From assembly GCA_963727315.1 (NCBI GenBank), contig CAVSFE010000002.1, positions 407,723-471,722 on the forward strand: DNA of 64,000 nucleotides. The letters are read 5' to 3'. Below, one piece after another: positions 5,782 to 34,524 of this stretch. The position numbers and the translations under genes are program-made. This DNA is from an uncultured Chloroflexia bacterium. Lineage in GTDB: Bacteria; Chloroflexota; Dehalococcoidia; Dehalococcoidales; RBG-16-60-22. Every line of letters starts with the position of its first letter. Within the stretch, counting starts at the first letter, position 1. The notes beneath the pieces were generated by a model, which ran no database searches, was not told the origin of the DNA, and saw only the letters and a program-made list of their open reading frames with translations.

Positions 5782-7131
5782 CTATATTTGTTTCAGGTAT
5801 TTCCTGGCAAGAGCTAGAGCTTTTTCCGGCTCGACCTGGGCAAGGAGTCCCACCGCATACAGAACATACTGCGTATCTAAATAAAAGCGGGGGGAGCGGG
5901 GCTTCAAAATAAAGGGATTTTCTTCGTTAAAAAGGACGCCTTCCAGGACCTGCCGCGGGCTATCCGAAAAAATAATCGGCCCGCCCGTGCCGATAACGCT
6001 CCTGACGCCGGTCAGGTCCTTGCCGTGCTGGATAAGCCGCTCGCCGGCGGGGCTATAGATAACTTCGAGCCGGCCGGCATGGCGGTCCATGGCGACCTCC
6101 ACCATGAGACGGGATAAAATCCGTTGGCAGGCGAAGTCGGTTTTACGGCGTGGCAAATTGCCCTCGCGGAAACGTTGAACTATGGCGGTAAAACCCGATG
6201 GCGTTTCCCGAGCTTGAACGAGCTCCAAAAGCCTGTCCAGGTTATACTTCAGACCGAGGTCGCCCTCAACGGTCCTTTTCTCGTAAGGCTCGGGGAGGCC
6301 GACCATGAGAATATCGGGCCGGGCGGGGGCGCCTTTAGCGATGGAATGAACGTCCGTGGTCGCCCCGCCGGGGTCGACAACGATAAGCTCCCCGAAATCA
6401 CAGGCGATGAGACTGGCCGCTTCCAAAACGGCGGCAGGAGTGGGCATAATAACGTCCTTGATAATCGCCCTGGCTTTAGCGATGCCTTTAGCCTCGATGA
6501 TGTTCTTCATAAAGAGGGCGCGGATTTCTCTATTGCAGGGGGCGACATCCAGCACGCCTATCTCCGGCATGACATTTCCGGTATAGATAACGTTTTTACG
6601 ACTATCTTTAAAGATAGTTTTTATATCGTCGTGCGCCGTTTTATTACCGGCAATAATGATATTTTTTATGGCCGGGCCGGTGCGGGAAAACAGGCGTGAG
6701 TTATGAATAATGACCTGTTCATCGCCGCCGTCCGTGCCGCCGGAGAGGAGGAGGATATCAGGGGCAAGCGACTCGATTTCTTTGACTTCCGCTTCGTTAA
6801 GCTTATAAGAATAGCTCCCCACGACCTTAGCGCCCGCCCCCAGCGCGGCGAGACTGGCGGCCTTGCTGGTAAGCTCCGGCACAAAGCCGGCGCAGACCAT
6901 GCGCAGTCCGCCGGCGGCGCTCGAACAGGCGAGGGCTTCCCTCTTTTCGAGGTCGGTGATAGGGGTTTTCGCGGAAATCTGCCTTAAAGCTTCCTCAAGT
7001 CCTACAGTGATATCGGTGTCCACGGTGGAGGGTAAACGGGCGGCGGCGACCACCTCAATGCGGGCGAGGTCGACGGCGACGACCTTGGTGAAGGTGGAAC
7101 CGAAGTCGATGAAAAGACGGATGTTGTCCAT
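5782..7131 (-). CDS. glmL: glutamate mutase accessory protein GlmL/MutL-like (ASKHA-fold putative reactivase)
   Basis: MDNIRLFIDFGSTFTKVVAVDL...ACSSAAGGLRM...LLSGGTDGGD is the typical GlmL pattern. It lies directly downstream of the S and E subunits. Confidence 0.75.
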   Translation of the reverse strand: MDNIRLFIDFGSTFTKVVAVDLARIEVVAAARLPSTVDTDITVGLEEALRQISAKTPITDLEKREALACSSAAGGLRMVCAGFVPELTSKAASLAALGAGAKVVGSYSYKLNEAEVKEIESLAPDILLLSGGTDGGDEQVIIHNSRLFSRTGPAIKNIIIAGNKTAHDDIKTIFKDSRKNVIYTGNVMPEIGVLDVAPCNREIRALFMKNIIEAKGIAKARAIIKDVIMPTPAAVLEAASLIACDFGELIVVDPGGATTDVHSIAKGAPARPDILMVGLPEPYEKRTVEGDLGLKYNLDRLLELVQARETPSGFTAIVQRFREGNLPRRKTDFACQRILSRLMVEVAMDRHAGRLEVIYSPAGERLIQHGKDLTGVRSVIGTGGPIIFSDSPRQVLEGVLFNEENPFILKPRSPRFYLDTQYVLYAVGLLAQVEPEKALALARKYLKQI

Positions 7132-11447: not shown

Positions 11448-11524
11448 GGCGCATTCGTCTAGCGGCCTAGGACGCGTCCCTCTCAAGGACGAGATCACGG
11501 GTTCGAATCCCGTATGCGCTACCA
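11448..11524 (+). tRNA. tRNA-Glu (anticodon CUC), CCA encoded
   Basis: Manual cloverleaf: acceptor GGCGCAT/ATGCGCT, D arm GTCT..AGGAC, anticodon stem CGTCC/GGACG with loop CT-CTC-AA, T arm ACGGG-TTCGAAT-CCCGT, discriminator A plus CCA. Confidence 0.9.
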
Positions 11525-11526
11525 AT
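11508..11526 (+). repeat. direct repeat copy 1 (attL-like core) TCCCGTATGCGCTACCAAT
   Basis: It covers the last 17 nt of tRNA-Glu plus 2 nt and is identical to 33985-34003. Confidence 0.85.
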
Positions 11527-14024: not shown

Positions 14025-14192
14025 CTTCTTCGGGTTTAAACGGAGATGATTGACTGATTCTGGCTTATTTTATTCTCTTACCTTCCTCTATTCAAGCGTC
14101 TCTGGTAAAGAAAATAAAAAAGCGGGGAGCCCCGTATGGGACTCCCCGCGGTATGCTACGCCGTCTATGAGTAATAGCCTCGGGTTGCCTTT

Positions 14193-15053
14193 TTAATCAA
14201 GCCACCATATCGTGTATGAATAATTACTTGATTGATTTATTGATTCTTTCGTCAAAATATAGTCATCATTTAAGGTACCACGCAAATTAGCCAGTTCCCC
14301 GGTGCCGCTGATGATAGTGCCCCGGATTGATTCCCAGCCGGTCATGTAATCCGGCGCGTCCAGCTTACCCCACATGACTTTATAAAGAGTGAGGGTGCCT
14401 GATTTGCCGTCCACCGTTCCCGTGAAGGTATCATCCGCGATTCTCATCCAACATTCCCCTGTACCGAGGTTCATCTCGAATTTGTTGACACCTTCCACCT
14501 TGCACTCAAATGTCCCGTTTAACTCGTAGATGTCCGTCTCTATATGCGTGTAAAACATTTCGGAGAAATCAATATTTCTATCGGCCATGTTAAAACCGAT
14601 CGGTATCAAAGTACCCGATGCGCTTGTATTAGTCGTGGTGGGGGATTTTATAGCGACGAAGAGCGAGTAGGTCCAGTCGAATACTTCGTGAGCTTTTCCG
14701 CTTGTCTTGAAGAGAATCACAGAGGAGCCTTTCGCCAGTCCTTTGAAGGTCCATGTCTGCTTTGGAGTACCGCCTGGCGCAGATTCGCTTCTATAGTCGA
14801 CTTTCTCTATCAACGAGGGATTGATGATTTCGGGTGGCTCCTCCCAGGCGCGATTAGAAGCTTCATCCGAGTTGAGACTTACGGTAAAAGAGTCCCCGGG
14901 AGCTATTTGTACCTCACCAGCTTGGTGCGCCTGCTGGAGCCATGTGTCCGGGGCTGGTACCGGCACCGTTTTTGTAGTCGGTGCCGGTTTACCGCAGCCA
15001 GCCATAAGAACGCAGATTACTATGACGGTCATTATATTAAATATCTTTTTCAT
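14193..15053 (-). CDS. lipoprotein with a chagasin(I42)-like N-domain and a DUF3224-like C-domain
   Basis: Lipobox VLMAGCGK. IAPGDSFTVSLNSDEASNRAWEE...TWTFKGLAKGSSVILFK resembles the chagasin-family pattern. The C-terminal ...TFTGTVDGKSGTLTL...ISGTGELANLRGT resembles DUF3224. It is a paralog of the next gene. Confidence 0.5.
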   Translation of the reverse strand: MKKIFNIMTVIVICVLMAGCGKPAPTTKTVPVPAPDTWLQQAHQAGEVQIAPGDSFTVSLNSDEASNRAWEEPPEIINPSLIEKVDYRSESAPGGTPKQTWTFKGLAKGSSVILFKTSGKAHEVFDWTYSLFVAIKSPTTTNTSASGTLIPIGFNMADRNIDFSEMFYTHIETDIYELNGTFECKVEGVNKFEMNLGTGECWMRIADDTFTGTVDGKSGTLTLYKVMWGKLDAPDYMTGWESIRGTIISGTGELANLRGTLNDDYILTKESINQSSNYSYTIWWLD

Positions 15054-15103: not shown

Positions 15104-16147
15104 TTATTTTATGAACCAGAATATGACTGTCGTAGGTGAAACGAGCTCATACGTGGGTGGGTCGGTGGCCGGCTCGACTGGGGTAGCGTGAACCTCAAAT
15201 TGCGTGGTGCCGCGCAGGTTAGCCAGTTCCCCCGTACCGCTAACAATTGTCCCGGCGTCCTCAATCCAGCTTGTTTTACTTGCTTTAAAGTTGTTTCTGG
15301 CGTCAAGTAATCCCCAGGCGAAAGCAATGCGGGTATAGCTGCCGGCTTTATCGTTCACCGTTCCGGTGAAGGTTTCCTGCGCCCTTTCCCAAAATTCACC
15401 GGTCACGAGGTTAGCTTCAAGCTTGATTACTTTGTCACTCTTTCCTTCCAGCGCCCCGTGCACGTCACTGGTAGTATGTACCATTTCGGTATAGACGTAC
15501 TCCGTCATATCCGTATTATTTTCGGTTACTTGATAACTTGTCTGTGTAAAGGTGGGCTCTAACGAAAAAGTAGTGACCGGCGAAGATGTTACCCCCACGG
15601 ATAGTGCGTATGTAAATCCCCGCATTTCATAGTTCTTGTCGGTCTTGAAATAAATAAGGCAGCCGCCTTCGCTCAGAGCCTTGAAATTCCAGGTCTGCCA
15701 TTCAGGTCTATTCGCCGAAGAGTTTTTAAAGCTAGCCAGCTCCACCACGCCCTGGTTGATAATTTCCGGTGCTTCGACCCAAAACTGGTCATTGGCTCTT
15801 TCAGTAGACAGATACACACTGAAGGTATCGCCCGGCGCCAGCCAAATTTCACCTCTTTGATGCCCGTCCTTCAGAAAAACATCCTGGGTTATCACCAGAG
15901 AATTCGGACCGGCCGTTGGCGTCGGGACTCCTGTCGAAGTGGGAGTAGAGGTGGGTGTTAGAGATGTGGTTTGAGTCGGGGTAAGCGTTGGAGTCGCAGA
16001 AGGAGTCGGAGTGGGCGTAGGAGATGCGCTTGACGTCGGCGTAGTAAGTGTAGGAGTTAATGTGGCGGTTGGCGTCGGTTTAGAGCAGCCAGCCATGAAA
16101 GTACAGATCATCAGGACTATTATTAATATGACGTATAGCTTTTTCAT
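15104..16147 (-). CDS. paralogous lipoprotein with a Thr/Pro-rich linker, a chagasin-like domain and a DUF3224-like domain
   Basis: Lipobox TFMAGCSK. A ~60-aa TP-rich linker (PTPTATLTPTLTTPTSSASPTPTPTPSATPTLTPTQTT...) follows. Then LAPGDTFSVYLSTERANDQFWVE...TWNFKALSEGGCLIYFK and ...VSGTGELANLRGT. Confidence 0.5.
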   Translation of the reverse strand: MKKLYVILIIVLMICTFMAGCSKPTPTATLTPTLTTPTSSASPTPTPTPSATPTLTPTQTTSLTPTSTPTSTGVPTPTAGPNSLVITQDVFLKDGHQRGEIWLAPGDTFSVYLSTERANDQFWVEAPEIINQGVVELASFKNSSANRPEWQTWNFKALSEGGCLIYFKTDKNYEMRGFTYALSVGVTSSPVTTFSLEPTFTQTSYQVTENNTDMTEYVYTEMVHTTSDVHGALEGKSDKVIKLEANLVTGEFWERAQETFTGTVNDKAGSYTRIAFAWGLLDARNNFKASKTSWIEDAGTIVSGTGELANLRGTTQFEVHATPVEPATDPPTYELVSPTTVIFWFIK

Positions 16148-16204: not shown

Positions 16205-16474
16205 TCATAGTGACACCTCCCTACTTCTTTTGGCATTGTTTTGCTCAGCTGAAACGTAAATCAAAGGGAGCCCCAGTTTCGAGAGTTGTGACAGCACCCC
16301 GTAAAGAGCGGCCTGGTCCCGAAGTAGACCACTCAAGATCGTGCAACCGTCCGCGGTATGGGTGATTTTAAGGCCTCCTAACCAGTCCGACCAGTTCCGG
16401 TCGATTTGCCCCTTGACACGGATTTCAACTTTTAGCATGCCTATACTCTGTTTCAATGTTACAAGCGATTTCAC
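16205..16474 (-). CDS. small conserved hypothetical protein, paralog of 21834..22121
   Basis: MLKVEIRVKGQIDRNWSDWLGGLKITHTADGCTILSGLLRDQAALYGVLSQLSKLGLPLIYV aligns with the paralog from M13. The likely true start is therefore 16438. Confidence 0.6.
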   Translation of the reverse strand: MKSLVTLKQSIGMLKVEIRVKGQIDRNWSDWLGGLKITHTADGCTILSGLLRDQAALYGVLSQLSKLGLPLIYVSAEQNNAKRSREVSL

Positions 16475-16479
16475 CCGGT

Positions 16480-16503
16480 GTAATCAATCTGGAGATTGAT
16501 TAC
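16480..16503. promoter_or_regulatory. 24-bp near-perfect palindrome, candidate operator
   Basis: GTAATCAATCT-GG-AGATTGATTAC has 11-bp perfect arms. It sits 42-65 nt upstream of the probable start (16438) of the small gene and downstream of the LuxR-type regulator. Confidence 0.5.
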
Positions 16504-16615
16504 AGGATTGATTTTAGTCACGCCAGAGTAAAGCTGAGGGTTGTAAGTTGAAAATCACAGAACAGGCCTGAGTTATTAAAAAGAAAGATGAATTACTGTG
16601 GGGATAAGCGGGCAG

Positions 16616-19246
16616 TTATATCAAACCAAGCTCTTGAGCCCGGACGATAGCCTGAACGCGGTCTTTAACATTCAGTTTCTCGAAGAGGTGGTGGACATGG
16701 GTCTTGGCGGTACTCAGGCTAATGAGCAATTTTTCCGCAATTTGTTGATTTGAATAGCCGGTGGCCAGTAGTCGCAGTACCTCTATTTCGCGTCCGCTTA
16801 GTATTTCATGGGCCGGGGAAAGTGTAATTTTTCCTTTTATCAGCTTGTGTCGTTCCTCTTCTGCCTCGATAATGGTGAGTAATTTAGCGGCGTACCCCGG
16901 TTCTATTTTCTGAGAGATGGCCTGCCGGAGTAGCTGCGCCAACGCCATGCCTTCGTCGACAAAGGCACGGATGCAGCCTTCAGGTTTGGCCATCGCGAGA
17001 GCATCGCTCAAGAATCTCAAGGCCTCGGCTGGCGTGGATGACTCCATGGCCTGGCATATGTGCACGGAGATTAGATATCCATTTAAAGCATCTCGGGCAA
17101 ACATTTCTTCGTCCGCCTGAAGTCGTTCCGCCCAGTCGTTTTTCCCTCTTCGAACATAGAGGGCACGTATAGCGATAAGGGGACCATCGGGGGGTAAAAA
17201 CACTTCATATTCTGAAAGCTTGTCAAGCCACCGAGAAACGGCGTCCGTATTCTTCTGTGCTATCGCTAACATGACATGGTAAGCCGCGTTGCGCGCTCGG
17301 TTAAACGGCGAAATACCGGGTTCGGTGGTTAATAACCGGTCGGCTTTTTCCATAGCTTGCTTCGCCCCCAGAAAATCCCCTTGGGCTAGACGTATACGTG
17401 CCATCTGGAGATAGGTTAAATCCGGAAGTCCAATATCCCCTAAGGGCCGATTCAATTCAATGGCTCTTTCCAGATGAGATGTAGCCGCTCCCAACTCGTT
17501 CCATTCATAAAGAACAAAGCTTAAAAGGATATGAGCATAGGTTGTCGAGTTTGATCGCTCATCCAGGTCTATTACCTGTCGATACATCTTGGCTGCTTGA
17601 TTGAGTTTACCTCGTACCATGGCAACCAGTCCCAGGAAAGTGAGTGGGAGAATAACGTCCTGATTATTCCCTATTTTACGGAAAGAATCGTAAGCCTCGG
17701 CTAGCAGCGGCTCGGCTTCTGCATAAAGATATCTGTTGATACAGTCCATTCCTACCATAAGGCATACGTAGCTACGCGTGGCTATATCAGCTGGCGGCAG
17801 CAGCGCTAGCGCCGTCTTGCCGTATTCCATGATAAGGTCGGTATCCCCTTTAATTAAGGCCTGGAGAGTCCGTAAAGCGGCGACACTGCCCTGAAGTCGA
17901 TTATCCTGAGTTGACTCTTCGAGATATTTTAAAGGGGCTTCGGCAGCGTTGAGCTGGCCTGTTCCCAAAAGCGACCTAATATACAGCAAATAAATGGGTA
18001 TGTTGGTGCGTAGAGTTTCCTCGGGTATTTGCTTCAACCAGTTAAGCAGTATTACCCACTCGCCCCGCCCGGTCAGACGGGGGTCATTAATGAGTCTCAT
18101 TGCCGTTTCCCAGTCTTTAGCCTCCAGTGCGTGATGGATGGCATCTTCCGAAAATTGGTGTTCCTCATGCCACTGACACGCAAGACGGTGCCATCCAGAT
18201 ACTTTTCCTAGACCGAACTCAATTTCCAGCTGGTGTCGCAGGAGTTCGGCGAAGAGATGCTCATAGCGGTACCATTGCCGCGACTCGTCCAGTGGGACGA
18301 TGAAGAGGTTGTCGTTCTCAAGCCTGAGAATCATCTCCTGGCTGTCATGGCGTCCGGTGACAAAATCACACAAGGGAGCGGTTAACCGTTCCAACACCGA
18401 AGTCTTTAAAAGAAAGTCCCGTATTTCGTGAGGCTGTTGCTTTAGCACTTCTTCCATGAGATAGTCCATGATATAACGCTGGCTACCGGTGAAGCTGGTT
18501 ATAAATCGTCTGACATCCGGCTGACGACGTAAGGAAAGCGCTGCCATTTTGAGTCCCACCGCCCAACCTTCAGTGCGCGCATTTAAAGTGTCGATATCAC
18601 TAATAGCAAGACTGGGGCTTTTCAATTCTTTAAGCAAAGTAGCCGCTTCATCGTGAGTGAAGCGCAAATCATCTGAACTTATTTCTAACATCATCCCTTT
18701 ACCACGGTAATGTACCAGGGGTAAAGGAGGGTCAATTCGAGATGCGATTATCAGGTGCGTCTTTTGAGGCATATGTTCGATTAAATAATTGATGCCGCTA
18801 TGTACTGGCATTGATCTTATAAAATGATAGTCATCTAGGACAATCGCAGACTGGAATTGAACGTTGTCCAGTTCATTGATTAATATGGTTAGCAGCGGTT
18901 CGATGGGCGTAGGTTGCGGCGAACGTAACAGAGCCAGAGGCCTTTCCCCGAAGTCAGACTGCAGGGTCTTTATGGCAGCTATTAAGTACTCCCAGAATCG
19001 GACGGGTTCGTTATCCCCTTCGTCTAGTGAAACCCAAGCGGTACATATTTTCGGCTGGCTCTGGCGTGCCCATTCGCTTAAAACCGTCGTCTTACCAAAA
19101 CCAGCGGGGGCTGAAATGAGAACGAGGTTATAAGCAAGGCCTTCTTGTAAACGTTCCAATAAGCGTGGGCGTGGTACCAGTTGTGTTCGGACTATAGGGA
19201 TATTGAGCTTAGTTTTTAATAATGACGTTTCCACATTCGCCTTCAC
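16616..19246 (-). CDS. MalT-like STAND ATPase / LuxR-family transcriptional regulator
   Basis: 876 aa. Walker A is ISAPAGFGKTT. A long TPR-like middle region follows. The C-terminal LuxR/GerE HTH is LSGREIEVLRLLATGYSNQQIAEKLLISLSTAKTHVHHLFEKLNV. Confidence 0.85.
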   Translation of the reverse strand: MKANVETSLLKTKLNIPIVRTQLVPRPRLLERLQEGLAYNLVLISAPAGFGKTTVLSEWARQSQPKICTAWVSLDEGDNEPVRFWEYLIAAIKTLQSDFGERPLALLRSPQPTPIEPLLTILINELDNVQFQSAIVLDDYHFIRSMPVHSGINYLIEHMPQKTHLIIASRIDPPLPLVHYRGKGMMLEISSDDLRFTHDEAATLLKELKSPSLAISDIDTLNARTEGWAVGLKMAALSLRRQPDVRRFITSFTGSQRYIMDYLMEEVLKQQPHEIRDFLLKTSVLERLTAPLCDFVTGRHDSQEMILRLENDNLFIVPLDESRQWYRYEHLFAELLRHQLEIEFGLGKVSGWHRLACQWHEEHQFSEDAIHHALEAKDWETAMRLINDPRLTGRGEWVILLNWLKQIPEETLRTNIPIYLLYIRSLLGTGQLNAAEAPLKYLEESTQDNRLQGSVAALRTLQALIKGDTDLIMEYGKTALALLPPADIATRSYVCLMVGMDCINRYLYAEAEPLLAEAYDSFRKIGNNQDVILPLTFLGLVAMVRGKLNQAAKMYRQVIDLDERSNSTTYAHILLSFVLYEWNELGAATSHLERAIELNRPLGDIGLPDLTYLQMARIRLAQGDFLGAKQAMEKADRLLTTEPGISPFNRARNAAYHVMLAIAQKNTDAVSRWLDKLSEYEVFLPPDGPLIAIRALYVRRGKNDWAERLQADEEMFARDALNGYLISVHICQAMESSTPAEALRFLSDALAMAKPEGCIRAFVDEGMALAQLLRQAISQKIEPGYAAKLLTIIEAEEERHKLIKGKITLSPAHEILSGREIEVLRLLATGYSNQQIAEKLLISLSTAKTHVHHLFEKLNVKDRVQAIVRAQELGLI

Positions 19247-19422
19247 CCCTAACTTATTGGGGATTACAGGCGGAGTTATTATAGCATAAATAGAATGAAA
19301 TTGAACAAAACCGAGATATGTTTAACCCTGTGTGGTTGCACAAAAGTCAGAAATGTTCAATTATAATTCGGCGTATTACACAAAACGTCAAGTTGTTCGG
19401 TACTGCTCGGTGGAGGTCGATC

Positions 19423-19617
19423 TCAGACTTTTACCTCTTTAACTCGACCAACATGACCGTCTTCTAAACGGACTTTGATACCATGGGGGTGAACAGGTGA
19501 TTTGGTCAAAATGTCTTTGACTATCCCTTCGGTTAGTTTTCCAGACTGCTGGTCTGTCTTCAATACTATTAAGACCCGCAAGCCCGGTCTTATGTTAACA
19601 CGATCTGTGCCATTCAT
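19423..19617 (-). CDS. YwbE family protein (DUF2196)
   Basis: 64 aa. ...GLRVLIVLKTDQQSGKLTEGIVKDILTKSPVHPHGIKVRLEDGHVGRV is the typical YwbE pattern. Confidence 0.7.
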   Translation of the reverse strand: MNGTDRVNIRPGLRVLIVLKTDQQSGKLTEGIVKDILTKSPVHPHGIKVRLEDGHVGRVKEVKV

Positions 19618-19935
19618 ACTGCCAACTCCATCTTTTCCATCATCGTACCATATCTAGAAGAGGAAGCCTTGTCGGTGTTAGAATGTCTTGTTTACACGCA
19701 CTACTTTTGGTCGGCGGGTCAGAGTGCTAGCCTCAGGTAACAATGCATCTTTTTGTGCAGGCAAAGATTAACCATTTCGATGAAAAGTGCAATCATACTT
19801 TTTAGCTATTTGTTTAACCTCGCCGTATCATATAAAAAGCCATTTTGTCAACCATAATTACCTTTGAATTCAGACCAGGGTATTTATTATCCCCCCATTT
19901 CAGCCTTTGGAGTGCCAATAGGTTATAATGTGCAT

Positions 19936-20940
19936 ATGGGAAAGTCACCGACTGTGGCCATTATGGGCTGCGGTCCCGGAGGAGCCTACCTATACGCATT
20001 ACTTCGGTACAAAAAGCCTGAGCTAGAAGTCACCATTTTTGACAAAACCCCTCATACTGTCTGTGGCATAAAGGGATGCGCTTGGGGAGCGAGTTGGCCC
20101 CAATTTTCCAAGCTCTCCAAGGAAGTAAATATAGACCCCGATAAGTACGTCCTCGGAAGGCATGATCATCTGCTTATCAACCAGATGAAGCTTAAGGCCG
20201 ATGGGGTTATAATAGACAAACCTTTATTAATCAAGGATCTACTCGGCGGAAAATCTCCGCTTGACCCATCAGATGCTGACTTATCTGCCTTTGAACGAAT
20301 CGTGGATGCCAGCGGTGTAAGTCGAGCTTACTTGTCATCACGGCAGGGGCTGGCTCCGGCAAATGTTATTCAGATGAGAATTACCACTACATCTATATCA
20401 TGCCCTACGGTATTTGCCGACAGAACTGGTGGTTACATATGGCTTTTCCCGCTCGGCAGAGGCGAGGCCCATGTCGGTTCTTTATCTCCACAGGGAATCG
20501 ACATCGCCACTCGAGAATTGGATCGAGTCAGGAAGATCTTAGCTGCTGGTCCAGTTCTGTGTAGTTGTTCTGCAATGATATGCCGTAAGGGGCCAGTTTA
20601 TCCATTTATCGAGGGAAAAGTCTGGGGACTGGGCGAGGCTATCGGCCTGGTGGATCCAATCGCATGTGCTGGGATAGTGCCAGCCATGACCTCAGCTAAG
20701 CTAATGAGCGAGAATTGGGACAATGATCACAGATATGAAAAACAGGTTTGGCGATGCTACTCTTATATGGTCAAAGAGGCAAAAGCGGTAGCCAAAATCG
20801 TCCGAGAAGAAAGGCTTCTTTATAGCGATTTATTACTCCCTCGTCGTGCTTTCAAGACCCTGGGCATTTACCCCAGCTTCCGTCAAATAATGAAGGTAGC
20901 ATCAACAGTTATAAAAATACAGAGCGTTAAAGACGATTAA
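19936..20940 (+). CDS. FAD/NAD(P)-binding oxidoreductase (geranylgeranyl-reductase-like family)
   Basis: The ATG at 19936 gives MGKSPTVAIMGCGPGGAYLYALL (GxGxxG). The C-terminal part has GLGEAIGLVDPIACAGIVPAM. The track ORF starts at a TTG at 19864. Confidence 0.65.
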   Translation: MGKSPTVAIMGCGPGGAYLYALLRYKKPELEVTIFDKTPHTVCGIKGCAWGASWPQFSKLSKEVNIDPDKYVLGRHDHLLINQMKLKADGVIIDKPLLIKDLLGGKSPLDPSDADLSAFERIVDASGVSRAYLSSRQGLAPANVIQMRITTTSISCPTVFADRTGGYIWLFPLGRGEAHVGSLSPQGIDIATRELDRVRKILAAGPVLCSCSAMICRKGPVYPFIEGKVWGLGEAIGLVDPIACAGIVPAMTSAKLMSENWDNDHRYEKQVWRCYSYMVKEAKAVAKIVREERLLYSDLLLPRRAFKTLGIYPSFRQIMKVASTVIKIQSVKDD

Positions 20941-21179
20941 ACCCTACAGCACGAAGCAGGCTAGGGCTCGTGGTTTAGTAAAGATCAACGGATTATTAGC
21001 TGCACAATTAGATGGATTGTGACATCTAATAATTACTATCAATAGCCGCCGTAGTTCGAGTCTAATATGATGGGTATTAGGGAGTCAGGAGATACTGCAC
21101 CCATGAATTTGTGATGTCCTAGCCCGTGATGGTGATTAATCCTGGGTGGAAAACCTCTTAAAGTCCTGCGGCGGCCAGG

Positions 21180-21689
21180 TTGTTACAGGAACTCTACGAG
21201 AGGTTTATCCAGTTTGGCGTATCCCTGTATGCGGCTCACGTACGCGTCTACCAGGCCCTGGCGGCAGATAACGAGGCAGCGGCGCTGGAGTTCCTGGCCG
21301 AAGCCCTGACCATGGCGGCGCCGGAAGGCGTTATCCGCTACTTCGTCGATGAAGGCAAACTGCTTAAACCGCTTCTTGAAAAAGCCTTGGCTCAGGAAAT
21401 TACGCCTGAATTTACCAGACAGCTGCTGGATATCATCGAAGAAGAGGAGCGGCAGAGGCAAGCCAGGAAACGAGCGGCCGCACCCCCACCGCTGCCCGGC
21501 CTCCTCAGCGAACGAGACCTCGAAGTCCTCAGGCCGCTCGCCGACGATATCCCTAACCAGCGCATCGCCGCAAAGCTAAGCGTCAGCCTGGGTACGGTCA
21601 AGACCCATGTCCATCACATCATCGATAAGCTGGAAGTGAAAGACCGCCGCCAGGCGGTCCAACGTGCCAGAGAGCTCAAGCTGCTCTAG
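21180..21689 (+). pseudogene. 3' remnant of a MalT/LuxR-type regulator (only the C-terminal ~170 aa)
   Basis: It aligns with the last ~170 aa of the 876-aa regulator (...PEGVIRYFVDEG... / ...LSERDLEVLRPLADDIPNQRIAAKLSVSLGTVKTHVHHIIDKLEV). The frame is closed by a TAA at 21159-21161, where AT-rich DNA begins. The fragment is visibly GC-rich, like the island flanks. Confidence 0.7.
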
Positions 21690-21751
21690 CTCCCTGCTCC
21701 CTCTTATCATCCCTCATACCCCTTAAAATCAATCCCGGAAATCTATCCTAA

Positions 21752-21770
21752 AATCTATCCACGATAGATT
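21752..21770. promoter_or_regulatory. palindrome AATCTATC-CAC-GATAGATT, candidate operator upstream of the small paralog
   Basis: It has 8-bp arms, with an extra direct half-site AAATCTATCC at 21739-21748. It occupies the same relative position as the 16480-16503 palindrome and shares the TAA..ATC...GAT..TTAC outline. Confidence 0.35.
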
Positions 21771-21833
21771 ACGTGCGCCTTTTTCGTTGTTAACATTAAC
21801 GCAAAGGTCGTTGCGCGCGAGGGTGAACACAAG

Positions 21834-22121
21834 ATGCGGCAAGTCGAAATCATGGTCAAGGGGCAGGTAGACCGGGACTGGTCGGACTGGTTCAGCGGCC
21901 TCGAAATCACCCACACGACCGGGGGTGAAACCATGCTGGCCGGCCACGTCCGCGACCAGGCAGAGCTTCGCGGAATTTTGTCCCGGCTTGCCGACCTGGG
22001 CCTCGAGCTGATATCGGTAAATACGTTATCAAGATCGCGCGTACCTGAGAGACCAGTAAGAGGAGGTGGTGAATATAAGACGAAAAACAGTAATTCACAA
22101 CCAAAAAACGACCAAGCCTAA
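21834..22121 (+). CDS. small conserved hypothetical protein, paralog of 16205..16474
   Basis: MRQVEIMVKGQVDRDWSDWFSGLEITHTTGGETMLAGHVRDQAELRGILSRLADLGLELISV. RBS GAGGGTGA lies upstream. Confidence 0.6.
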   Translation: MRQVEIMVKGQVDRDWSDWFSGLEITHTTGGETMLAGHVRDQAELRGILSRLADLGLELISVNTLSRSRVPERPVRGGGEYKTKNSNSQPKNDQA

Positions 22122-22146: not shown

Positions 22147-22740
22147 ATGGGCAAAAAGATTTTAATTGTAATGTCATTGTTACTCATCGTTGGGCTTCTG
22201 GCTGGTTGCGGCGGCGTAAAAAAAGCTGACCTGGATGCCGCCAACGCCCAGGTAAATACTTTGCAGAATGAGGTAAACACTATGCAGACTCAATTGAATG
22301 CTGCCAACGCTGCTAAAAGCCAGGCTGAAGCAAACGAATCTCTTGCCCGTAGTTACTATGATGCTCTGAACAAGGGGGACGCCAATGCTCTCGGTCAATA
22401 TTTAGCGCCGGACTATAAGCGATACCTCTCGGCTACAGGTACGCCGCTGGACGTTGCTGGACAGTTGAAAAGGCTGGCTGGATTAGGCGCTGTGTTCCCG
22501 GATATGCAGATCACTATTGACAATATCATTGCCGAAGGAGACTATGTTGCCATCTGCCTGACCGCTAGGGGTACACAAAAAGTAGCATTTCTAGGGATAC
22601 CTGCAACCGGGAAAAAGATTACGGTCTCTGGATTCGAGGTCGTTCGCATCGAAAATGGGAAAATTATCGAACACTGGGGGGGAACTGACACGTTCAATCT
22701 GCTGCAACAACTGGGCGCAGTAATCTCGGCAGGACAGTAA
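22147..22740 (+). CDS. lipoprotein with an N-terminal coiled-coil segment and a SnoaL-like (ester cyclase) domain
   Basis: The ATG at 22147 follows AAAGGAGAAAG. Lipobox LLAGCGG. A Q/N/A-rich heptad segment follows, then YYDALNKGDANALGQYLAPDY...GFEVVRIENGKIIEHWGGTD. Confidence 0.65.
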   Translation: MGKKILIVMSLLLIVGLLAGCGGVKKADLDAANAQVNTLQNEVNTMQTQLNAANAAKSQAEANESLARSYYDALNKGDANALGQYLAPDYKRYLSATGTPLDVAGQLKRLAGLGAVFPDMQITIDNIIAEGDYVAICLTARGTQKVAFLGIPATGKKITVSGFEVVRIENGKIIEHWGGTDTFNLLQQLGAVISAGQ

Positions 22741-22860: not shown

Positions 22861-22892
22861 GGGAAGGGGGCCCCTCCGGGGGCTCCCTTCTC
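22861..22892 (+). terminator. GC-rich hairpin followed by a T/A-rich tract
   Basis: GGGAAGGGGGCCCC-TCC-GGGGGCTCCCTTCTC (one mismatch and one bulge), then TTTAAATTT. Confidence 0.35.
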
Positions 22893-23210
22893 TTTAAATT
22901 TAATAAACAGAGGGGCAAGTGGGTAATTGTTTATGGAATTGGTTACAATCACTCATTTTGTTGAGCCTGGTTGCACATTCTAGCGAGTTGTTGGGCAACA
23001 ATCCGATGGATTGTGTAATATCCTGCATTTTCAGAATTGTTAAGTCACTTTTTAGCTGATTGTCGACTAGTATACGTTGTGTTATACTACTGGTAGAGAG
23101 ACCGTCGATAAAGACTCCCCGTTTCCTTTGATGTAATACTCATGCACATAATTATACCCACTCTGAGTTGGCTATAGGCGACGTAATAAATATTCTAAGG
23201 CGTCTATTTC

Positions 23211-23522
23211 ATGAAAAGTAAAATTTGCTCGGCAATTGATTCCAAGAAAGTGATAAGCTTTTACTACAGGGGCGGTATTCGTTTCGTAGAACCATACTGT
23301 TATGGTCTTCATAAAAGTACTGGAGATGAAGTGCTTAGGTGTTATCAAGTCAAAGGTTTTAGTGAATTTGGAGAACCTTTTGGCTGGAAATTTTATCCGG
23401 TGAATGAGATTTCGAAATTGGTGATAACTGATAATAATTTTAGAGGCGACAGGAAAGATTATAACCCCGATGACACTATGATGAAGAAAATAATTTGTAG
23501 AATAGAGGGTGAAAAGCCTTAA
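23211..23522 (+). CDS. hypothetical small protein in a strongly AT-rich patch (possible WYL/SH3-like fold)
   Basis: 103 aa. ...KKVISFYYRGGIRFVEPYCYGLHKSTGDEVLRCYQVKGFSEFGEPFGWKFYPVNEISKL is loosely reminiscent of WYL-type beta-barrel repeats. No confident family assignment. Confidence 0.35.
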   Translation: MKSKICSAIDSKKVISFYYRGGIRFVEPYCYGLHKSTGDEVLRCYQVKGFSEFGEPFGWKFYPVNEISKLVITDNNFRGDRKDYNPDDTMMKKIICRIEGEKP

Positions 23523-33984: not shown

Positions 33985-34003
33985 TCCCGTATGCGCTACC
34001 AAT
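33985..34003 (+). repeat. direct repeat copy 2 (attR-like core) TCCCGTATGCGCTACCAAT
   Basis: Exact 19/19 match to 11508-11526. It is not part of a tRNA here. Confidence 0.85.
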
Positions 34004-34035: not shown

Positions 34036-34524
34036 ATGGCGAAGAAGAAGTACGCAAAATACGTGTTCTCCGGGTTCAGGGAGGAAATGAACCTACCGTT
34101 CATCGCCAAGCCGCAGGCATATTTCCGGGGGGCCAGTCAAATACCGGGGGCGGGTGTCAACATGGGGTGGCAACTGTTTATCAAGCCGATATTGCTGGAA
34201 ACGGAGCCTCATACCCATAACGCCGACGAATACCTGATTTTCCTGGGCCATGACCCCGCCGACTGGTTCAGCAGCTTTGACGCGGAGATCGATTTATTCA
34301 TCGGGGAGGAGATGGAAAAATATCTCATCGACAAGCCGACGATTGTCTATATTCCGCCCAATCTAACCCACTGCCCGCTTGACTTCCGGGTCATCAACAA
34401 GCCCGTGCTGTTCACGGCGCTGCTACAGACGCCGATATTTACCAAGACGATGAAGGGAAAGGAATATAAGTTCGACGGACCGGACGCCAAGGGCAATATC
34501 TCCGGGGAGATGTCTAAAATATAA
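34036..34524 (+). CDS. small cupin-like hypothetical protein (paralog family with 41636..42079 and 42072..42560)
   Basis: ...ETEPHTHNADEYLIFLGHDPADWFSSFDAEIDLFIGEEMEKYLIDKPTIVYIPPNLTHCPL... shares the H.H...DE....G.DP......GEIE...G.......VP.G..H.P pattern with the other two. Confidence 0.6.
   Translation: MAKKKYAKYVFSGFREEMNLPFIAKPQAYFRGASQIPGAGVNMGWQLFIKPILLETEPHTHNADEYLIFLGHDPADWFSSFDAEIDLFIGEEMEKYLIDKPTIVYIPPNLTHCPLDFRVINKPVLFTALLQTPIFTKTMKGKEYKFDGPDAKGNISGEMSKI

Follow-up and report, generated by a model that had tools for sequence, protein, structure and literature searches.

Two paralogous copies, one truncated, of a module pairing a MalT-like STAND/LuxR regulator with a small conserved protein in a Chloroflexota genome

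Architecture and recurrence of the module

The DNA analyzed here (the window) is a stretch of 64,000 nucleotides from contig CAVSFE010000002.1 of an uncultured Chloroflexia bacterium, and it contains two copies of a gene module in which a MalT-like STAND/LuxR regulator is followed, on the same strand, by a gene for a small conserved protein. Copy 1 lies on the minus strand and copy 2, whose regulator gene is truncated, on the plus strand. The copy 1 regulator (876 aa; 16616-19246) comprises a P-loop nucleotide-binding oligomerization domain (NOD), a MalT-type tetratricopeptide repeat (TPR) sensor and a C-terminal GerE helix-turn-helix (HTH) domain. Its sensor matches the TPR/SUPR profile TPR_MalT (PF17874) with 151.5 bits against a cutoff of 45 over residues 453-776, and its HTH matches GerE (PF00196) with 67 bits, in line with the first-pass annotation, which had called a MalT-like STAND/LuxR regulator of this length from the letters alone. 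AAA_16 is matched weakly (E=3e-6, under the Pfam cutoff), and the NOD motifs can be read directly in the sequence as APAGFGKTT (Walker A, with the core GFGKT) and VLDDYH (Walker B). The protein is classed as MalT-like and not as MalT because it reaches 421 bits with the NCBIfam MalT model NF003420, under the cutoff of 537; by its sequence, it is a member of the MalT/LAL kind of STAND-LuxR regulators and not a MalT orthologue. No maltodextrin genes were found near it among the open reading frames (ORFs) and domain scans of the window.

The small protein of copy 1, S1, has 77 residues (16205-16438, minus strand) and an ATG start that is backed by homologues. Its counterpart in copy 2, S2 (21834-22121, plus strand), has 95 residues, and its C-terminal tail is considered native because the related locus L085 carries the same tail. 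S1 and S2 are 59% identical (E=3e-28) and thus paralogous, as the annotation had proposed. The regulator of copy 2 is reduced to a 169-aa remnant with a TTG start (21180-21689, plus strand), which retains the last sensor helices, the linker and the GerE HTH (56 bits) and lacks a NOD. It is 48% identical to residues 709-876 of the copy 1 regulator (E=2e-35), and only profile positions 291-335 of PF17874 remain of the sensor (36.5 bits, under the cutoff).

In both copies, the small gene is followed by genes for putative envelope proteins. The copy 1 cargo consists of two paralogous DUF3224 lipoproteins (15104-16147 and 14193-15053, minus strand), assigned by Pfam and by lipobox signal peptides in their translations, one of which is also chagasin-like; DUF3224 is likewise found downstream in the close relative L002. 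These tandem paralogues share 48-58 nt DNA repeats that lie ~930-1090 nt apart, and a chagasin-like gene also occurs near the modules of L001. The copy 2 cargo is a SnoaL-like lipoprotein (22147-22740, plus strand; Pfam SnoaL, 103 bits), and the locus L084 has the same order, with a full-length regulator, the small gene and a gene that weakly matches SnoaL_2. Strong terminator-like hairpins end both operons, at 14122-14149 on the minus strand for copy 1 (a 12-bp stem with 10 GC pairs, then a T-run) and at 22861-22892 on the plus strand for copy 2; the terminator scan predicted none inside either operon. PADLOC anti-phage models gave HTH-level matches to CARF-HTH alone and nothing for S1, S2 or the cargo.

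The module is not particular to this genome. Scanning one genome per species yielded 80 loci, mostly from Chloroflexota and Actinomycetota, with a few from Planococcus, Spirochaetota and KSB1. Upstream sequence of 800 bp or more is available for 79 small genes; in 54 of these, a MalT-like HTH encoded on the same strand ends no more than 1500 bp before the small gene (median gap 220 bp), and L021 and L050 seem to add two linked loci through frameshifted regulators. The closest metagenomic relatives, L001 and L002, have the same layout as the module in the window. Small genes without an adjoining regulator show no other recurrent upstream neighbor. The gene that follows the small gene varies and usually encodes an envelope protein: DUF4386 in 24 of 63 cases, DUF6326 in 5 and an ABC ATPase in 4, with MMPL, FAD monooxygenase, DUF3224, SnoaL and others being rarer. 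The linked regulators share a mean pairwise identity of 48% (NOD 56%, sensor 42%, HTH 60%; small protein 60%), so that by sequence they are unusually alike for this superfamily, across phyla and despite differing cargo. Moreover, divergence of the small protein follows that of the NOD (rho 0.67). Together with the predicted operator and promoter conserved between the two genes, this linkage bears out the conserved pairing seen in the first-pass annotation: the small gene is the conserved neighbor of this regulator class.

Predicted operators and promoters

Between the regulator and the small gene, both copies carry an array of three to four half-sites of 8-9 bp, the inner pair of which forms a palindrome; 7 of the 10 AATCWATC sites in the window fall in these two intergenic regions. 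Read in the direction of the genes, the predicted operator of copy 1 (16479-16516, minus strand) has two direct half-sites, H1 (AATCAATC, 16513-16506) and H2 (AATCAATC, 16501-16494), and the inverted half-site H3 (16489-16482). That of copy 2 (21727-21770, plus strand) has three direct half-sites (AATCAATC at 21727-21734, AATCTATC at 21740-21747 and 21752-21759) and one inverted half-site (21763-21770). The copy 1 palindrome, TGTAATCAATCT-CC-AGATTGATTACA (16479-16504; 12+2+12 bp), stands alone in the window: no second inverted repeat combines arms of 11 bp or more with a spacer of 4 or less. For repeats of this kind, ~0.12 occurrences per 64 kb are expected in first-order Markov sequence. The first-pass annotation had described it as a 24-bp palindrome with 11-bp arms; its existence holds and the arms measure 12 bp. 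The related palindrome reported for copy 2 is present as AATCTATC-CAC-GATAGATT (21752-21770, plus strand).

The arrangement of half-sites is conserved among relatives. The layout of copy 1 recurs in L002 and L003, and that of copy 2 is kept in L083, L085 and L086; in L084, the palindrome arms have changed in compensatory fashion (ATGAATC and GTTCAT). Most other loci have two direct, one inverted and one further direct half-site, with start-to-start spacings of ~12, 10 and 13 nt. Allowing up to two mismatches, the pattern of two direct and one inverted half-site is found at 22 of 53 linked loci, as compared with 0.4% of shuffled sequences. The operators were anchored by hand on the half-sites; a MAFFT alignment of the two intergenic regions was uninformative. 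A supposed third copy near 34261 and 35334 (repeat families D13 and D15) was rejected as a chance match within unrelated ORFs.

Comparing the loci, we found that the class of half-site changes with the recognition helix of the adjoining regulator. The helix STAKTHVHH (copy 1, L002) is paired with AATCAATC, GTVKTHVHH (copy 2, L083, L085) with AATCTATC, SLNTxRTHTKNIY with ATCACCAC, ALDTVKGHNRRIF with CAACAC and ALSTVRTYTKSIY with TCCCCACA. The first half-site of copy 2, which lies inside the 12-mer TAAAATCAATCC, is identical to the copy 1 type, and relatives have AATCTATC in its place. Since this half-site type and the KTHVHH motif are common to both copies, it is conceivable that the copy 1 regulator acts in trans on copy 2, a suggestion from the sequence that hangs on a single base.

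Downstream of the operator, each copy carries a -10-like hexamer, TAACAT, located 20 nt past H3 in copy 1 (16456-16461, minus strand) and 20 nt past the inverted half-site in copy 2 (21791-21796, plus strand). The operator is clear at 24 loci, 23 of which have a TANNNT hexamer at a fixed distance of 20-22 nt past the inverted half-site. Should this hexamer be the -10 element, the palindrome would be centered at about -42.5 of a predicted promoter without a good -35. This geometry would resemble that of the class II lux box of LuxR, a 20-bp inverted repeat at -42.5: in the module, an inverted repeat is centered 30-31 nt upstream of the -10-like hexamer, which would correspond to about -42 to -43, and a good -35 is missing. 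Unlike the lux box, the palindrome of the module is flanked by extra direct half-sites, and the predicted regulator is a STAND protein and not an acyl-homoserine-lactone receptor.

Alternatively, the palindromes could be terminators or RNA hairpins of the regulator gene and not protein-binding sites. The terminator scan indeed flagged 16479-16504, solely on the plus strand, which is antisense to both genes. We regard this explanation as highly improbable and rejected it: no T-run follows the palindrome on the coding strand, the additional half-sites in direct orientation are unable to pair, most relatives have an inverted pair without a spacer (ATCACCACATGTGGTGAT), which is ill-suited to a hairpin loop, and the half-sites co-vary with the recognition helix of the HTH. 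No Rfam family was matched in the leaders either.

Loci of the ATCACCAC clade show a further feature. Their fourth half-site, CTCACCACAT, lies in the promoter spacer, after the inverted half-site and before the -10-like hexamer, and is found ~100-170 nt upstream of the small gene in L005, L010, L019, L030, L042, L049, L072 and others. The leader that follows it spans roughly 70-100 nt and contains conserved stretches without an Rfam match.

Small protein and proposed working of the module

The small protein belongs to a large, unnamed family. S1 has at least 1480 homologues in a collection clustered at 90% identity, all of them unnamed and none with a Pfam domain, and a profile search of a library clustered at 50% retrieved 12,865 clusters at E<=1e-3 and 5,583 at E<=1e-10. 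No sequence match was found in Pfam, NCBIfam or the PDB. An AlphaFold2 (AF2) model with a pLDDT of 89 predicts a beta-loop-beta-beta-alpha-beta fold, a four-stranded sheet with one helix (strands 2-9, 24-27 and 32-39, helix 42-54, last strand 59-66). In this model, a loop stands where a ferredoxin-like fold would have its first helix; this loop holds the invariant WSxW, and the single helix is capped by the likewise invariant DQAAL. Foldseek neighbors are weak and include acylphosphatase, the ACT domains of RelA and AHAS and PII-like proteins (E 7.5e-3 to 0.15, TM ~0.55; best match E 7.5e-3, TM 0.56). The family shares with these proteins a small alpha/beta domain and, with ACT, the occurrence of that domain in free, tandem and fused form with varied effectors. 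It differs in having the WSDW loop in place of the first helix of the beta-alpha-beta-beta-alpha-beta fold; the small protein showed neither that topology nor a profile match to the ACT/ferredoxin-like group.

The gene order, with a small conserved gene behind a TPR regulator in the same orientation, recalls the RNPP pairs PlcR-PapR, NprR-NprX and Rap-Phr. Unlike their partners, S1 and S2 lack a signal peptide or N-terminal hydrophobic segment and are predicted to form a compact domain, and they are therefore not expected to be secreted pro-peptides. The small protein has a dN/dS of 0.14-0.24. In-frame fusions join its domain to membrane proteins (DUF4386-like and DUF6326) or to a NUDIX hydrolase; elsewhere the domain is found as a tandem pair, or one copy stands on either side of a block of 4-5 transmembrane helices. 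Examples of these arrangements are L080:1745-2704, L057:5396-6025 and L027:5989-6378 and the proteins P0274, P0268, P0176, P0168 and P0204. The free, tandem and fused forms thus suggest that the small domain behaves as a modular cytoplasmic interaction or regulatory domain, and we infer that it works with the cargo, the regulator or both. Small proteins with the same type of cargo are only slightly more alike than others (0.64 versus 0.56 identity), a difference that does not favor a cargo role over a regulator role.

The reading that we consider probable is that the window holds an intact and a truncated paralogous copy of a regulatory module that is widespread and self-contained, and whose regulator activates the small gene and the envelope cargo. 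In 5'-3' order, such a module would comprise the MalT-like STAND/LuxR regulator, the half-site operator beside a promoter with a weak -35, the ~70-aa cytoplasmic protein and variable envelope genes. By analogy with MalT, the regulator would multimerize once activated by its signal, and its HTH domains would occupy the half-site array. With the inner inverted pair near -42.5, as in a lux box, the regulator would then switch on the small gene and the cargo up to the strong terminator; activation is proposed because the palindrome would take this lux-box position. The small protein would be the constant first product of the regulated operon, with the cargo varying behind it. The promoter of copy 2 would probably respond to the orphan HTH fragment, to the intact regulator of copy 1 acting in trans, or to the two together.

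Several features of the MalT system lend themselves to comparison. MalT of E. coli and the LAL regulators share with the module the domain order of P-loop NOD, winged helix, MalT-type TPR/SUPR sensor and GerE HTH, as well as promoters in which several short asymmetric sites are arrayed, some direct and some inverted, as would suit a multimer. MalT must oligomerize to bind a promoter with several (four) MalT sites, and it is controlled by the partner proteins MalK, MalY and Aes (PMC10427625). The array of three to four half-sites lends indirect support to a similar, inducer- and ATP-dependent multimerization that would enable the module's regulator to bind DNA. In contrast to MalT, the half-sites of the module (AATCAATC, ATCACCAC and others) are unrelated to the MalT box, and in place of maltodextrin genes the regulator is linked with an unnamed small protein and envelope cargo; the copy 2 regulator, in addition, has neither NOD nor a complete sensor.

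Some observations weigh against an activated module of this kind. About 30% of the small genes have no adjacent regulator, and, as we read the downstream DNA of further MalT-like regulators in the retrieved loci, 4 of the roughly 6 in which it is legible lack the small gene. The -10 assignment derives solely from the conserved position of the hexamer, and a consensus promoter scan made no calls at the predicted promoters. Finally, the fourth half-site of the ATCACCAC clade lies between the -35 and -10 positions, where binding sites more often serve repression than activation.

A rival reading has the small protein act on the regulator itself, given that peptides and proteins are the usual ligands of TPR sensors. 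As a dedicated ligand or feedback modulator, it would bind the TPR sensor or the NOD in the way MalK, MalY and Aes control MalT, possibly relaying the state of the envelope cargo, and would be part of the switch and not a mere product. Regulator and small gene indeed form the constant pair while the cargo varies, the sensor is still 42% identical across phyla despite this diversity, the divergence of small protein and NOD is correlated, the WSxW loop and the DQAAL helix cap offer invariant surface-type residues, and fusions to cargo proteins would permit a relay. Yet the correlation may arise merely from co-inheritance in one operon, the fusions are to cargo and not to the regulator and point first to a cargo role, and the family members without an adjoining regulator would have no such partner at hand. 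On balance, we find a ligand role unlikely, if worth keeping in view. More speculative, and rather improbable in our estimate, is the extension by which the ~65-residue domain would represent a new class of protein co-regulator for a large MalT-like STAND subfamily, acting as a protein ligand or as a feedback or relay element that reports the state of co-expressed envelope proteins to the TPR sensor. If that were true, the module would be a widespread, uncharacterized envelope-sensing circuit in Chloroflexota and Actinomycetota, and the recurrent splitting of the HTH from the ATPase-sensor part described below would be a way of rewiring it.

STAND/LAL regulators are abundant in Actinomycetota and Chloroflexota, and few have known signals, operators or targets. 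For one large subfamily, the activated-module reading supplies a predicted operator grammar with a specific half-site, spacing and promoter position, a directly testable correspondence between recognition helix and half-site, and a constant target gene from a family of ~12,900 clusters (50% identity) that is unnamed and that neither Pfam nor NCBIfam models. Neither of these two collections contains a model for the module as a whole, PADLOC and Rfam gave no match to it, and literature searches on DUF4386, the ATCACCAC palindrome and MalT/STAND/LuxR regulators in Chloroflexi returned nothing relevant. If the small protein and the regulator turn out to be partners, the former would represent a new type of STAND co-regulator; otherwise, the family still merits a domain definition, and the operators enable regulon prediction in uncultured lineages. 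The general module and the small-protein family, rather than the duplication in the window, are the part worth pursuing.

Truncation and composition of copy 2

The first-pass annotation held that copy 2 retains the last ~170 codons of a regulator, beginning abruptly at about 21160, and the 169-aa ORF described above agrees with this. Searching the upstream DNA by tblastn and three-frame translation revealed no regulator homology in any frame, and stop codons are present in all three frames between 20940 and 21160. The breakpoint lies at 21159-21168 (plus strand), where a TAA codon (21159-21161) is immediately followed by the first residues that align with relatives; protein-level similarity starts at ~21166-21168 and DNA similarity at 21187. 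From there, homology extends through the operator, S2 and its native tail up to 22087. Copy 2 has therefore lost only the N-terminal ~700 codons of the regulator, that is, by sequence comparison, the ATPase and most of the sensor.

The closest relatives of the remnant are 76-80% identical in protein and 74-77% in DNA. Each is the C-terminal part of a full-length regulator whose sequence is interrupted, in L085-L087 by an in-frame TAG, in L083 by a frameshift and in L084 by scaffold gaps. A natural stand-alone family of short homologues (153-196 aa) was considered and rejected; the contigs show full-length genes broken by a stop, a frameshift or N-gaps. Splits between sensor and HTH recur among related regulators (L001:1851-1853 and 6722-6724; L085:461-463; L086:314-316; L083 at ~2220). 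On the 278-kb contig of L001, an in-frame TGA recurs at one aligned position in two paralogues, and a third paralogue has a frameshift. The in-frame TAG is common to three samples, another relative has the frameshift, and the C-terminal pieces have a dN/dS of ~0.16. Recoding, recurrent uncoupling of the HTH and decay are all possible explanations for these splits. The duplication and truncation in the window are ordinary paralogue decay.

Copy 2 could be a dead remnant; the 169-codon piece would then be an untranslated pseudogene, with S2 and the SnoaL gene silent or expressed by read-through only. The N-terminal 80% of the regulator is gone, and related regulators are often broken in the ways just described. 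Moreover, the TTG is the sole start of the fragment, without a clear Shine-Dalgarno sequence, and no promoter of its own is predicted, which also counts against the activated-module reading; no terminator separates the remnant from the upstream FAD-oxidoreductase gene. On the other hand, the remnant is open for 169 codons to the native stop, its dN/dS against relatives (0.11-0.16) is the same as that among the relatives themselves (0.157), though this test has little power to detect recent decay, and the elements downstream of it, namely operator, -10-like hexamer, S2 including the native tail, cargo and terminator, have stayed intact and are conserved. A wholly dead copy thus seems unlikely to us, and we read the sequences as indicating that the rest of copy 2, from the HTH through operator, promoter, S2 and SnoaL cargo to the terminator, is kept under purifying selection.

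Both copies lie within a 22.5-kb block of low GC content (0.48 versus 0.55-0.56 in the flanks). The block is bracketed exactly by a tRNA-Glu gene at its left boundary (11448-11524, plus strand) and by a 19-nt perfect direct repeat of the tRNA 3' end, TCCCGTATGCGCTACCAAT (11508-11526 and 33985-34003, plus strand). A tRNA gene on one side whose 3' end is repeated directly on the other side is the layout of a tRNA-integrated island; from the sequence, the repeats look like att sites and the block boundaries island-like. Among the main ORFs between 11.5 and 34.0 kb, neither an integrase nor any other mobility gene was found. The content of the block is metabolic, including MetF/MetV, FlpD/MvhD-like, HdrA-like and 4Fe-4S proteins, and it also holds two response regulators and a histidine kinase.

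Within this block, copy 2 stands out as a sharp ~0.9-kb patch with a codon composition like that of the flanks. The 880 bp from 21160 have a GC content of 0.570, a value that no non-overlapping 880-bp window of the block reaches (mean 0.486, sd 0.035). GC content at third codon positions (GC3) is 0.68 in the copy 2 fragment and 0.78 in the S2 core, as compared with 0.50-0.56 in copy 1; large ORFs have 0.54 +/- 0.04 in the block and 0.67 +/- 0.06 in the flanks. The contrast between a GC-rich copy 2 and an island-like copy 1 was thus seen correctly from the start. The window accordingly combines an intact module and a decayed paralogue in a compositionally mosaic, tRNA-bounded block.

The first-pass annotation further proposed that this mosaic island had captured or disrupted a resident homolog; the mosaic composition stands, and the data fit capture or disruption of a resident piece and import from a donor of higher GC alike. 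A resident origin would make copy 2 a piece of an older module of the host, with host-like GC, embedded in incoming DNA of lower GC. Its GC3 indeed matches flank genes and not block genes, the block is bounded by a tRNA and a direct repeat, and the closest known relatives of copy 2 have a GC content of only 0.46-0.50, so that the high GC is specific to the copy in this genome and would fit long residence in a host of GC ~0.56. A donor of higher GC fits equally well, however, and a patch from such a donor or a gene-conversion tract would look alike. Furthermore, copy 2 lies deep inside the block, 9.6 kb and 12 kb from its two boundaries and at no junction, no mobility gene was found, and the SnoaL cargo directly downstream is block-like (GC3 0.50), although the L084 module also has cargo weakly matching SnoaL_2. 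We therefore regard a resident origin as possible but less likely than not.

The gap between the two modules is filled by a DUF2196 gene (19423-19617) and a gene for a geranylgeranyl-reductase-like FAD protein (19864-20940), which has no Pfam match at E<=0.01 and scores far under the cutoff of NCBIfam GG-red-SF. Between the end of the FAD gene and the truncation point lie 240 bp of AT-rich non-coding DNA. An 18-nt repeat with an internal palindrome (of the ACAATCCGATGGATTGT type; 21004-21021 and 22998-23015) flanks copy 2 together with its SnoaL cargo, and a 17-nt repeat is found upstream of the FAD-oxidoreductase gene (ACTTTTTAGCTATTTGT, 19797-19813) and of the ORF at 23211-23522 (ACTTTTTAGCTGATTGT, 23047-23063). 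These repeats could be shared regulatory sites, recombination scars or chance occurrences.

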